This document shows positions 7,419 through 57,972 of a DNA stretch of 64,000 nt, one piece after another. Both the position numbers and the translations under genes were made by a program. Position 1 is the stretch's first letter; each line of letters opens with the position of its first letter. This DNA comes from Escherichia coli (GTDB taxonomy: Bacteria > Pseudomonadota > Gammaproteobacteria > Enterobacterales > Enterobacteriaceae): NCBI RefSeq assembly GCF_003334785.1, contig NZ_QOWV01000002.1; one strand, 5' to 3'. A model generated the notes under the pieces. That model did not search any database. It was not told the origin of the DNA and saw only the letters and a program-made list of their open reading frames with translations.

Positions 7419-7451
7419 AAAAAGGCGACACATTGGCATGTCGCCTTTTTT
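7419..7451. terminator. bidirectional intrinsic terminator between ypfM (+) and acrD (-)
   Basis: aaaaa-ggcgaca-cattggca-tgtcgcc-tttttt; A-run/T-run on both sides. Confidence 0.75.
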
Positions 7452-15262: not shown

Positions 15263-15387
15263 AAAATAACAATAATATTTCGTTGTTTATTATTGGCTCA
15301 ATCCGACAAATCCGATTGAGCCGCGCTACCTGCGCAACGAAGATACGACTTGTGCTGTTTGTTTGAACTTCTGGGGTCGTACCGTCC

Positions 15388-19787: not shown

Positions 19788-22067
19788 ATGGATGACCAGT
19801 TAAAACAAAGTGCACTTGATTTCCATGAATTTCCAGTTCCAGGGAAAATCCAGGTTTCTCCAACCAAGCCTCTGGCAACACAGCGCGATCTGGCGCTGGC
19901 CTACTCACCAGGCGTTGCCGCACCTTGTCTTGAAATCGAAAAAGACCCGTTAAAAGCCTACAAATATACCGCCCGCGGTAACCTGGTGGCGGTGATCTCT
20001 AACGGTACGGCGGTGCTGGGGTTAGGCAACATTGGCGCGCTGGCAGGCAAACCGGTGATGGAAGGCAAGGGCGTTCTGTTTAAGAAATTCGCCGGGATTG
20101 ATGTATTTGACATTGAAGTTGACGAACTCGACCCGGACAAATTTATTGAAGTTGTCGCCGCGCTCGAACCAACCTTCGGCGGCATCAACCTCGAAGACAT
20201 TAAAGCGCCAGAATGTTTCTATATTGAACAGAAACTGCGCGAGCGGATGAATATTCCGGTATTCCACGACGATCAGCACGGCACGGCAATTATCAGCACT
20301 GCCGCCATCCTCAACGGCTTGCGCGTGGTGGAGAAAAACATCTCCGACGTGCGGATGGTGGTTTCCGGCGCGGGTGCCGCAGCAATCGCCTGTATGAACC
20401 TGCTGGTAGCGCTGGGTCTGCAAAAACATAACATCGTGGTTTGCGATTCAAAAGGCGTTATCTATCAGGGCCGTGAGCCAAACATGGCGGAAACCAAAGC
20501 CGCATATGCGGTGGTGGATGACGGCAAACGTACCCTCGATGATGTGATTGAAGGCGCGGATATTTTCCTGGGCTGTTCCGGCCCGAAAGTGCTGACCCAG
20601 GAAATGGTGAAGAAAATGGCTCGTGCGCCAATGATCCTGGCGCTGGCGAACCCGGAACCGGAAATTCTGCCGCCGCTGGCGAAAGAAGTGCGTCCGGATG
20701 CCATCATTTGCACCGGTCGTTCTGACTATCCGAACCAGGTGAACAACGTCCTGTGCTTCCCGTTCATCTTCCGTGGCGCGCTGGACGTTGGCGCAACCGC
20801 CATCAACGAAGAGATGAAACTGGCGGCGGTACGTGCGATTGCAGAACTCGCCCATGCGGAACAGAGCGAAGTGGTGGCTTCAGCGTATGGCGATCAGGAT
20901 CTGAGCTTTGGTCCGGAATACATCATTCCAAAACCGTTTGATCCGCGCTTGATCGTTAAGATCGCTCCTGCGGTCGCTAAAGCCGCGATGGAGTCGGGCG
21001 TGGCGACTCGTCCGATTGCTGATTTCGACGTCTACATCGACAAGCTGACTGAGTTCGTTTACAAAACCAACCTGTTTATGAAGCCGATTTTCTCCCAGGC
21101 TCGCAAAGCGCCGAAGCGCGTTGTTCTGCCGGAAGGGGAAGAGGCGCGCGTTCTGCATGCCACTCAGGAACTGGTAACGCTGGGACTGGCGAAACCGATC
21201 CTTATCGGTCGTCCGAACGTGATCGAAATGCGCATTCAGAAACTGGGCTTGCAGATCAAAGCGGGCGTTGATTTTGAGATCGTCAATAACGAATCCGATC
21301 CGCGCTTTAAAGAGTACTGGACCGAATACTTCCAGATCATGAAGCGTCGCGGCGTCACTCAGGAACAGGCGCAGCGGGCGCTGATCAGTAACCCGACAGT
21401 GATCGGCGCGATCATGGTTCAGCGTGGGGAAGCCGATGCAATGATTTGCGGTACGGTGGGTGATTATCATGAACATTTTAGCGTGGTGAAAAATGTCTTT
21501 GGTTATCGCGATGGCGTTCACACCGCAGGTGCCATGAACGCGCTGCTGCTGCCGAGTGGTAACACCTTTATTGCCGATACATATGTTAATGATGAACCGG
21601 ATGCAGAAGAGCTGGCGGAGATCACCTTGATGGCGGCAGAAACTGTCCGTCGTTTTGGTATTGAGCCGCGCGTTGCTTTGTTGTCGCACTCCAACTTTGG
21701 TTCTTCTGACTGCCCGTCGTCGAGCAAAATGCGTCAGGCGCTGGAACTGGTCAGGGAACGTGCACCAGAACTGATGATTGATGGTGAAATGCACGGCGAT
21801 GCAGCGCTGGTGGAAGCGATTCGCAACGACCGTATGCCGGACAGCTCTTTGAAAGGTTCCGCCAATATTCTGGTGATGCCGAACATGGAAGCTGCCCGCA
21901 TTAGTTACAACTTACTGCGTGTTTCCAGCTCGGAAGGTGTGACTGTCGGCCCGGTGCTGATGGGTGTGGCGAAACCGGTTCACGTGTTAACGCCGATCGC
22001 ATCGGTGCGTCGTATCGTCAACATGGTGGCGCTGGCCGTGGTAGAAGCGCAAACCCAACCGCTGTAA
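19788..22067 (+). CDS. maeB: NADP-dependent malic enzyme (malic enzyme domain fused to PTA-like domain)
   Basis: 759-aa [26 protein letters not shown]. Confidence 0.95.
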
Positions 22068-22110
22068 TTTTTTTTAACTCTCACGCTTACCCTGAATATT
22101 CAGGGTAAGC

Positions 22111-35646: not shown

Positions 35647-36147
35647 ATGATCAATGCACTGGGATTGCTGGAAGTGGACGGCATGGTCGCCGCGATAGAT
35701 GCAGCGGATGCCATGCTCAAAGCAGCTAACGTTCGTCTGCTCAGTCACGAAGTGCTTGACCCTGGTCGCTTAACGCTGGTGGTGGAAGGCGATCTGGCGG
35801 CGTGTCGTGCGGCGCTGGACGCAGGTTGTGCTGCCGCGATGCGTACCGGGCGTGTCATCAGCCGCAAGGAGATCGGTCGGCCAGACGATGACACCCAGTG
35901 GCTGGTTACTGGCTTTAACCGCCAGCCGAAGCAACCCGTAAGGGAACCCGACGCGCCAGTTATCGTCGCGGAATCTGCTGACGAGTTGTTGGCGCTGTTA
36001 ACATCAGTACGTCAGGGAATGACGGCAGGAGAAGTGGCTGCCCACTTTGGCTGGCCGCTGGAAAAAGCCAGAAATGCGCTCGAACAGCTCTTTTCTGCCG
36101 GGACGTTACGTAAACGCAGTAGTCGTTATCGTCTCAAGCCCCATTAA
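35647..36147 (+). CDS. eutK: BMC shell protein EutK (BMC domain + C-terminal HTH-like domain)
   Basis: ORF 35641..36147 trimmed to MINALGLLEVDGMVAAIDAADAM (166 aa). Confidence 0.9.
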   Translation: MINALGLLEVDGMVAAIDAADAMLKAANVRLLSHEVLDPGRLTLVVEGDLAACRAALDAGCAAAMRTGRVISRKEIGRPDDDTQWLVTGFNRQPKQPVREPDAPVIVAESADELLALLTSVRQGMTAGEVAAHFGWPLEKARNALEQLFSAGTLRKRSSRYRLKPH

Positions 36148-36192
36148 CCTGTCGGAGGTGCCGGGTGTCCTACAACACCCGGCATTAACATC

Positions 36193-37245
36193 ATGAAAAA
36201 GACCCGTACAGCCAATTTGCACCATCTTTATCATGAACCCTTACCCGAAAACCTGAAGCTCACGCCGAAGGTCGAAGTGGATAATGTTCATCAACGACAG
36301 ACAACGGATGTCTATGAACATGCTTTAACGATTACCGCCTGGCAGCAGATTTACGATCAGCTGCATCCGGGCAAGTTTCATGGTGAATTTACGGAAATTC
36401 TACTCGATGATATTCAGGTTTTTCGTGAATACACCGGTCTGGCGCTGCGTCAGTCGTGCCTGGTCTGGCCGAACTCGTTCTGGTTTGGCATTCCGGCGAC
36501 GCGCGGTGAGCAGGGATTTATCGGTTCGCAATGTCTGGGAAGCGCGGAAATCGCCACCCGCCCTGGTGGCACTGAATTTGAACTGAGCACGCCGGATGAT
36601 TACACGATCCTGGGCGTGGTGCTTTCTGAAGATGTCATCACCCGGCAGGCTAACTTTTTGCATAACCCGGATCGGGTATTACATATGTTGCGTAACCAGT
36701 CGGCGCTGGAAGTGAAAGAGCAGCATAAAGCCGCGCTGTGGGGCTTTGTCCAACAGGCGCTGGCGACGTTTTGCGAGAATCCGGAAAATCTCCATCAGCC
36801 TGCAGTGCGAAAAGTGCTGGGGGATAATTTGCTAATGGCGATGGGGGCCATGCTGGAAGAAGCGCAACCAATGGTGACGGCGGAAAGCATCAGTCATCAG
36901 AGTTACCGTCGATTGCTTTCCCGCGCCCGTGAATATGTGCTGGAAAACATGTCCGAACCGGTGACGGTGCTGGATTTGTGTAATCAACTGCATGTCAGCC
37001 GCCGCACGCTACAAAACGCGTTTCACGCTATTTTAGGCATTGGCCCGAACGCGTGGCTGAAACGCATTCGCCTGAACGCCGTACGCCGCGAACTGATAAG
37101 TCCGTGGTCGCAAAGTATGACGGTAAAAGACGCCGCCATGCAGTGGGGATTCTGGCATCTGGGGCAATTTGCCACGGATTACCAGCAGCTGTTTTCCGAG
37201 AAGCCGTCACTGACGCTGCATCAGCGGATGCGGGAGTGGGGGTGA
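36193..37245 (+). CDS. eutR: AraC-family transcriptional activator of the eut operon EutR
   Basis: 350-aa [26 protein letters not shown]; C-terminal AraC-type HTH. Confidence 0.95.
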
Positions 37246-37250
37246 GGGAG

Positions 37251-38153
<903 letters not shown>

Positions 38154-40745: not shown

Positions 40746-41729
<984 letters not shown>

Positions 41730-54989: not shown

Positions 54990-55017
54990 AAAAATGGCGC
55001 CGATGGGCGCCATTTTT
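54990..55017. terminator. bidirectional intrinsic terminator between convergent pdxK and crr
   Basis: aaaaa-tggcgcc-gatg-ggcgcca-ttttt. Confidence 0.8.
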
Positions 55018-57943: not shown

Positions 57944-57972
57944 CAAAAAAGCACCTAAAAAGGTGCTTTTTT
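57944..57972. terminator. intrinsic terminator downstream of cysK (hairpin flanked by A-run and T-run)
   Basis: aaaaaa-gcacct-aaaa-aggtgc-tttttt. Confidence 0.75.

Follow-up and report, generated by a model that had tools for sequence, protein, structure and literature searches.

Translation initiation regions in which a hairpin parts the Shine-Dalgarno sequence from the start codon, called 'noncontiguous or split' by Aseev et al., are considered rare (PMC7297116). The closest described examples are two genes of bacteriophage T4, worked out by Gold (1988), Nivinskas et al. (1999) and Malys & Nivinskas (2009) and taken here from the reviews PMC3014915 and PMC7297116: a hairpin cuts the spacing between Shine-Dalgarno sequence and AUG from 22 to 5 nucleotides (nt) in gene 38 and from 27 to 11 nt in gene 25. 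Mutations that destabilise these hairpins lowered translation, and the gene 25 hairpin was confirmed by dimethyl sulfate (DMS) probing and by phylogeny, distant relatives being without it (PMC3014915). Here we analyze a 64,000-nt stretch of Escherichia coli DNA (assembly GCF_003334785.1, contig NZ_QOWV01000002.1), referred to in full as the window, and within it a hairpin in the spacer between eutK and eutR, the last two genes of an ethanolamine (eut) operon. Conservation and covariation make it almost certain that this hairpin is a selected RNA structure. We propose, as the on balance probable reading, that its main role is to bridge a distant Shine-Dalgarno sequence to the eutR AUG, so that the two form a split ribosome-binding site. 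In the literature searched we found no description of a eutK-eutR stem-loop or of the eutR ribosome-binding site, and neither 'stem-loop' nor 'eutK' occurs in the paper on the small RNA MavR and eutR (PMC8565329).

The eutR site resembles the T4 sites in several respects. Read linearly, the Shine-Dalgarno sequence is too far from the start codon (34 nt in eutR, 22 and 27 nt in the T4 genes) and a stable hairpin shortens the gap; the site is intercistronic, at the eutK-eutR junction as that of gene 25 is at the 26-25 junction; and the hairpin occurs in a clade of close relatives, while distant relatives have a contiguous ribosome-binding site. The phage genes, however, were proven by mutagenesis, reporter fusions and DMS probing, whereas eutR encodes a chromosomal regulator and its site is known from sequence alone. 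In addition, the eutR hairpin can coexist with a proximal Shine-Dalgarno sequence, or have its function taken over by one, in some lineages, and the phage and bacterial elements share no sequence homology. The eutR arrangement displays every sequence-level hallmark of a T4-type split site, and its function is predicted from these.

Two further groups of structures invite comparison. In the E. coli thrS and rpmE genes, as in eutR, a stable and conserved stem-loop interrupts the initiation region of a cellular mRNA, and in thrS and rpmE initiation is not blocked; there, however, the hairpin parts an AU-rich enhancer from the Shine-Dalgarno sequence and constitutes the operator of an autogenous repressor (PMC7297116), whereas the eutR hairpin parts the Shine-Dalgarno sequence from the AUG. 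Repetitive extragenic palindromic (REP) elements and other intercistronic stabilizers share with the eutR hairpin a GC-rich GCCGG...CCGGC stem, the want of a U-tract and a location past a stop codon within an operon. Unlike REP elements (~35 nt), the eutR hairpin spans 24-27 nt, has no REP consensus beyond its GCCGG ends, and varies in its upper stem between genera by compensatory change, which does not match a genome-wide repeat family. A REP element was rejected as its identity: a covariance model run over 312 kb (the window plus 50 loci) found the eutK-eutR copy alone, and both length and sequence differ.

Results

A conserved hairpin at the eutK-eutR junction

The initial annotation of the window had described a perfect stem of nine base pairs, GCCGGGTGT (36160-68) with ACACCCGGC (36175-83), closing the loop cctaca (36169-74) and ending 9 nt before the ATG, and this description is correct. 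The stem lengthens to ten perfect base pairs through U36159-A36184 (T-A in the DNA), and ViennaRNA adds two optional G.U pairs, G36157 and G36158 with U36186 and U36185. The 10-bp hairpin on its own has a predicted energy of -18.6 kcal/mol; the values are -19.2 kcal/mol without and -21.5 kcal/mol with the G.U pairs. It holds at heat, with -17.1 kcal/mol at 42 °C and -14.8 kcal/mol at 50 °C. An RNA thermometer was considered and rejected, since the stem does not melt at 30-42 °C and contains neither the Shine-Dalgarno sequence nor the AUG.

Viewed as a single sequence, the hairpin is just modestly above chance. The 101-nt fold at the hairpin has a z-score of -2.4, and a census of perfect hairpins (stems of 9 bp or more, loops of 3-10 nt) counted 20 nested hits in the window, spread over 8 sites, where 40 dinucleotide shuffles averaged 2.8 hits. 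A permissive Rfam scan of positions 35000-37500 gave chance-level hits only (E ~6 and ~16 bits, against gathering scores of 37-39). In one fold CUGUCGG (36149-55) paired with eutR codons 4-6, a pairing absent in other sequence contexts. The reality of the hairpin is settled by the comparative data, in which 40 sequences preserve the stem through compensatory changes. The initial annotation had named a lack of conservation in other eut operons as part of what would refute it; the stem proves to be conserved there, and with covariation.

A scan for EutR with one genome per species yielded 63 loci, and protein-cluster look-ups added 10 more. The hairpin is present at the eutK-eutR junction in 40 sequences from at least eight genera, in 18 distinct arm combinations; these sequences come from Escherichia, Citrobacter, Klebsiella, Salmonella, Pseudocitrobacter, a Pluralibacter metagenome-assembled genome, Intestinirhabdus, Phytobacter and other Enterobacteriaceae. 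The five basal pairs are mostly G-C, C-G, C-G, G-C and G-C and are nearly invariant in most species, and in the wider sampling they too covary, pair 2 being U-A in Phytobacter and pair 5 A-U in L071. The upper stem changes between genera by compensation: pair 7 is U-A, C-G, G.U or A-U, pair 9 is U-A, C-G or U.G, and pair 10 is U-A, G-C or C-G. Even within Escherichia, the stem of E. whittamii differs from that of E. coli by a single double change of U-A to C-G.

These changes were quantified in two ways. When a MAFFT alignment that had not been fitted to any structure was folded with RNAalifold, the basal eight pairs were predicted, 94.4% of cells formed standard pairs, and double changes were present at five of the eight pairs. 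The covariation score was 0.355, compared to 0.161 ± 0.025 in shuffled alignments, and none of 500 shuffles matched the observed paired fraction, double changes or covariation score; controls with slid partners were 28-48% paired. A count anchored at the stem base over the 18 arm combinations gave 95.1% paired and double changes at six of nine positions, with 0 of 1000 shuffles as high. An alignment fitted by covariance model was dropped, its top three pairs being mis-registered because stem and loop lengths differ between genera. Across the arm combinations there are about 15 G.U cells against 5 A.C cells, and ~95% of cells are paired on the + strand compared to ~89% on the - strand. This excess of G.U over A.C favours pairing on the + strand, hence in the eut mRNA, and it disfavours a DNA palindrome or a minus-strand RNA, both of which we had considered.

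Within E. coli, 5,362 of 5,390 records reach at least 99% identity over the 61 nt round the hairpin, which at this length means zero differences, while the flanking 760 bp are merely 95-99% identical in 1,381 of 5,422 records. Strain NCTC 13148 (L074) carries a 1-nt deletion in the 3' arm, at the equivalent of window position 36177, that turns ACACCCGGC into AC-CCCGGC; it is one of only 28 records that differ anywhere in the 61-nt region.

Position of the Shine-Dalgarno sequence

Within 50 nt upstream of the E. coli eutR ATG, the best duplex with the anti-Shine-Dalgarno sequence is formed by GGAGG, at -10.8 kcal/mol (positions -41 to -33). The same upstream GGAGG gives the best duplex in E. 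coli, Citrobacter, Klebsiella, Salmonella, Pseudocitrobacter and Phytobacter alike, at -10.0 to -10.8 kcal/mol. Between -20 and -1, a search for a proximal Shine-Dalgarno sequence returned a best duplex of just -1.7 kcal/mol in E. coli and of -0.9 to -2.4 kcal/mol in 12 other representatives, with L073 as the exception at -5.5 kcal/mol. The distance from GGAGG to the AUG is 34 nt in linear form; with the 10-bp stem folded it becomes 8 nt, or 10 nt when counted from the G-C closing pair. In linear form GGAGG would be too distant from the AUG to act. The folded hairpin (~-19 kcal/mol) would leave 8-10 unpaired nt between the two, a workable spacing, and a 30S subunit bound at GGAGG would then place the AUG in its P site with the hairpin protruding, as in T4 genes 38 and 25. 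We infer that ribosomes use this upstream GGAGG and that hairpin formation raises rather than lowers EutR translation. It had been suggested in the initial annotation that the stem might occlude or position the eutR ribosome-binding site. Positioning is the part that gains support, from the location of the only Shine-Dalgarno sequence upstream of the hairpin and the shortening from 34 to 8-10 nt; occlusion would be weak at most, as the stem covers none of that sequence.

The flanks of the hairpin are of fixed length. GGAG is invariant in all 40 hairpin-bearing sequences, and between the end of GGAG(G) and the stem's G-C anchor pair there are 0-1 nt; the AUG follows 9-10 nt past that pair, again in 40 of 40. 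Across species, stem energies range from -16.7 to -23.6 kcal/mol, the 5' flank measuring 0-2 nt and the 3' flank 8-11 nt. The hairpin itself measures 23-27 nt, and 75-77 nt, at -48 kcal/mol, in Intestinirhabdus alba. In this species (L028 1908-1990) the expanded hairpin keeps the same basal pairs, GGAGG stands directly before it and 9-10 nt lead to the ATG, which amounts to a natural insertion experiment. Insertions and deletions have been accepted at the top of the hairpin and not in its flanks. On the upstream side, the stem starts 4-12 nt past the stop codon in every lineage, and 11 nt past that of eutK in E. coli.

The sequence that follows the stem also bears on a transcriptional attenuator limiting read-through from the operon promoter P1 into eutR, which the initial annotation had put forward and which the data do not uphold; we regard it as the most improbable of the explanations considered. 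A GC-rich stem-loop ahead of the last gene of a long operon is what such an attenuator would look like. No T/U tract follows the stem, however, in E. coli (tail ATTAACATC / AUUAACAUC) or in about 40 other species (tails mostly TTAAAAGATC or ATAAAAGATC, also given as UUAAAAGAUC or AUAAAAGAUC), none is present on either strand, and a terminator scan does not flag the hairpin. An intrinsic (Rho-independent) terminator, with which the hairpin has its GC-rich stem-loop in common, is ruled out on these grounds. Moreover, eutR is transcribed from P1, and this expression underlies the known positive feedback loop (review, PMC5821096).

Two observations concern possible translation starts within the hairpin. 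In E. coli, a mini open reading frame (ORF) begins with GTG at 36165-67, 6 nt after GGAGG, runs for seven codons (VSYNTRH) and ends with TAA at 36186-88, 4 nt before the eutR ATG. Termination-reinitiation coupling through such an upstream ORF was rejected, as a start codon is absent at that position in Salmonella, Citrobacter and Klebsiella and E. whittamii loses the GTG; the mini-ORF is probably fortuitous. In a Klebsiella pneumoniae-like metagenome contig (L065 1501-1521), EutR has been called from a TTG in the hairpin loop, giving 357 instead of 350 amino acids. This start is probably a mis-call arising from the want of a Shine-Dalgarno sequence near the true ATG.

Lineages without the hairpin or with a moved Shine-Dalgarno sequence

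In Brenneria, Lonsdalea, Pectobacterium, Samsonia and Dickeya, eutR has no hairpin and GGAGG lies 9-10 nt before the ATG, which is the spacing that remains once the hairpin is removed from the main clade. The junctions with a hairpin differ among themselves: in the main clade an upstream Shine-Dalgarno sequence is bridged, L068 (EutR 73% identical; 1455-1500) and Yokenella (L030 1957-2000) have one on each side of the hairpin, and L067 has a proximal one only. Each lineage therefore retains a Shine-Dalgarno sequence within effective reach of the start codon, either directly or across a hairpin. The junctions of L067, L068 and Yokenella branch more deeply and may represent intermediate stages in the split site's evolution.

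L067 also brings in the strongest of the rival explanations, that the hairpin mainly serves mRNA stability or processing: at the last intercistronic junction it would hold back 3'-to-5' exonucleases or keep RNase E out. In the manner of REP elements and other stem-loops between cistrons, it would give the eutS-eutK message and the eutR segment lifetimes independent of each other, and GGAGG would be secondary. As the main role we consider this unlikely, though a serious candidate. In its favor, the hairpin is stable and GC-rich (-17 to -24 kcal/mol), has no U-tract and lies directly past a stop codon inside an operon; it persists in L067 although the Shine-Dalgarno sequence there is downstream; the spacer that holds it measures 45 nt, compared to ~10 nt at the eutC-eutL and eutL-eutK junctions; and eutR mRNA is controlled through RNase E and the small RNA MavR, which binds the eutR coding sequence (PMC8565329). 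On its own, however, a stability role leaves unexplained why the invariant GGAG(G) is always 0-1 nt from the stem, why the distance from stem to AUG stays at 9-10 nt with hairpins of 23 to 75 nt, and why the main clade has no other Shine-Dalgarno sequence. The hairpin is also single-copy, found by the covariance model at the eutK-eutR junction alone. A stability role is plausible and is compatible with a split ribosome-binding site. Because L067 combines the hairpin with a proximal Shine-Dalgarno sequence, the hairpin is likely also to serve, or to have served at first, a further purpose at this junction, such as that of an mRNA decay barrier, with the ribosome-binding site fitted around it.

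Several observations weigh against bridging as the main role of the hairpin. In L067 (EutR 78% identical; 1450-1500) the upstream Shine-Dalgarno sequence is missing and a GGAG stands 3 nt ahead of the AUG, yet the hairpin is there; a hairpin can therefore exist without bridging. L066 and L071 carry a weaker upstream element, GGAGA or GGAGC, with duplex energies of -5.6 to -6.6 kcal/mol. Predicted ensembles show the E. coli GGAGG as partly paired, with P(unpaired) values of 0.03-0.78, and the effective spacing of 8-10 nt, to which the width of the helix end must be added, is at the long end of the functional range. Net translation of eutR may be low whatever the hairpin does, because GGAGG is partly paired and the AUG almost fully paired in a second predicted helix (see below). 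Finally, the sampled species are related, and the conservation of the flanks is partly a matter of shared ancestry.

A published reporter touches on the same leader. In Salmonella, a translational P2-eutR'-'lacZ fusion spanning -454 to +104, which takes in the leader, was expressed, and it was repressed by overproduced CsrA, a GGA-binding protein (PMC10433801). One GGA of the leader is in GGAGG, where it is unpaired next to the stem and outside any loop; leaders repressed by CsrA typically have GGA motifs in hairpin loops, with one overlapping the Shine-Dalgarno sequence. Repression by CsrA offers indirect evidence that fits a functional, GGA-containing Shine-Dalgarno sequence without proving it.

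The same repression can be read in favor of a protein-binding site, in which the hairpin, as RNA or as a DNA palindrome, would be bound by the C-terminal helix-turn-helix of EutK, or the stem-adjacent GGA by CsrA. The C-terminal domain of EutK has been called 'mysterious' and suggestive of nucleotide binding, with no role identified (review, PMC5821096). All hairpin loci have an upstream gene with EutK_C, an upstream bacterial microcompartment (BMC) gene without EutK_C goes with the lack of a hairpin, and the five lowest pairs are near-invariant in sequence in most species. The co-occurrence of hairpin and EutK_C is, however, confounded by synteny and phylogeny, and Buttiauxella has EutK_C with an 18-nt spacer and no stable hairpin. 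The pairs covary (pairs 2 and 5) and the loops vary, so that it is pairing and not sequence that is conserved, and the G.U pairs speak against a DNA palindrome. We therefore rate a protein-binding site as very unlikely. Its more specific form, in which the hairpin is a ligand of the EutK helix-turn-helix and EutK bound to its own mRNA gates EutR translation or tethers eut mRNA to the nascent microcompartment, is a long shot still; if true, the making of the shell and the regulator's positive feedback loop would be tied together.

A tentative second helix at the start codon

The predicted fold of the region just downstream contains a further, tentative helix that would mask the AUG (Table 1). 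Its local fold has an energy of -9.7 kcal/mol, and the probability of the AUG being unpaired is ~0 in 11 of 14 species. Of 36 unique sequences, 34 show no change at the synonymous sites of eutR codons 2-3 and 11-15; by contrast, the codons for Leu9, Leu23, Val27, Glu28 and Asp30 are free to vary. L065 and L073 have lost the helix. According to these folds, the eutR start site looks heavily structured. In a split ribosome-binding site, the GGAGG held near the AUG by the hairpin could serve as a waiting place for the 30S subunit until the AUG-masking helix opens.

This second helix, which fits a start site designed to be weak, is also one of the points that speak for a translational damper. Here the hairpin beside the Shine-Dalgarno sequence would cut initiation at eutR and so hold the regulator at a low level, or it would stall ribosomes terminating on eutK and lower the output of EutK. 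In all lineages the distance from stop codon to stem is 4-12 nt, and Liang, Rudd and Deutscher (2015, Mol Cell) reportedly found that stop-proximal REP hairpins stall terminating ribosomes and so lower output. In E. coli the optional G.U pairs can reach the last two G of GGAGG (-21.5 vs -19.2 kcal/mol), in line with the low predicted P(unpaired). The G.U extension is, however, not a conserved feature, and an anti-Shine-Dalgarno duplex of ~-10.8 kcal/mol would readily displace it. Pure occlusion normally buries the Shine-Dalgarno sequence or the AUG in the stem, which is not so here, and a hairpin that merely hindered would leave the main clade without any ribosome-binding site. A damper is accordingly quite unlikely in our judgment, less so than a protein-binding site and more so than a stability element.

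Genes and other hairpins of the window

The window ORF of eutK ends at the same position as the RefSeq annotation of the gene (501 nt), and eutK orthologues carry PF00936 together with PF16365 (EutK_C). The identities of both genes were confirmed by 760 bp round the hairpin that are 100% identical to several E. coli chromosomes annotated eutK and eutR, and the spacer between them comprises positions 36148-36192. A scan of 35400-37400 with the sigma-70 consensus for the known weak promoter P2 returned no match. Among the E. coli proteins retrieved, P0003, P0004, P0008, P0056 and P0079 fuse EutB, EutC or BMC Pfam domains to EutR; such fusions imply in-frame deletions within the eut operon of some strains or assemblies. 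The coordinates of the features are collected in Table 1.

Table 1. Features of the eutK-eutR junction, in window coordinates
Feature	Position	Strand	Remarks
eutK coding sequence	35647..36147	+	Microcompartment shell protein with EutK_C helix-turn-helix tail; stop TAA 36145-36147; from the ORF list
GGAGG, proposed only Shine-Dalgarno sequence of eutR	36154..36158	+	Abuts the 5' side of the stem; -39..-35 relative to the AUG; GGAGGUG when the first stem bases are counted
Hairpin, 5' arm	36159..36168	+	U + GCCGGGUGU
Hexaloop CCUACA	36169..36174	+	Varies freely among Escherichia: CAUAUA, CGUACA; UAUG in E. whittamii
Hairpin, 3' arm	36175..36184	+	ACACCCGGC + A; covaries with the 5' arm
Spacer UUAACAUC	36185..36192	+	8 nt, A/U-rich, single-stranded, from stem to AUG; no Shine-Dalgarno sequence
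Tentative AUG-masking helix, 5' arm UCAUGA-A-AAAGA	36191..36202	+	Predicted fold; positions -2..+10
eutR coding sequence	36193..37245	+	AraC-family activator, 350 aa; start ATG 36193-95
Tentative AUG-masking helix, 3' arm UCUUU-A-UCAUGA	36225..36236	+	eutR codons 11-15

Other hairpins of the window lie outside this junction. A perfect 11-bp palindrome, GCTTACCCTGAATATTCAGGGTAAGC, occupies 22085-22110. It lies 18 nt past the stop codon of a 759-aa ORF (19788-22067), presumably maeB, and some 250 nt ahead of an ATG (22361) that we assume to open eutS, with which the eut genes begin. The palindrome has no T-run behind it and may be either a terminator hairpin or a site for a protein. At 54990-55017 and 57945-57972, palindromes composed of an A-run, a GC hairpin and a T-run resemble bidirectional intrinsic terminators. 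Further perfect hairpins of at least 9 bp in the census are at 1276-1302, 7421-7448, 15295-15322 and 40788-40810.

Discussion

If the proposed split ribosome-binding site is real, it would be a chromosomal and phylogenetically well-supported site of the T4 type, where the papers cited here (PMC3014915, PMC7297116) give two phage genes only. It would also have practical consequences. Gene callers and ribosome-binding-site predictors that look 5-15 nt upstream of a start codon will score eutR as having no Shine-Dalgarno sequence, and eutR constructs cloned from the ATG or with a short leader would lose the ribosome-binding site.

EutR is the driver of ethanolamine use and, in enterohaemorrhagic E. 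coli, also a promoter of virulence factor expression (PMC8565329). The level of EutR sets a positive feedback loop. If the hairpin is needed to bridge the only Shine-Dalgarno sequence to the start codon, EutR dosage would hang on the fold of an RNA in Escherichia, Salmonella, Citrobacter and Klebsiella alike.

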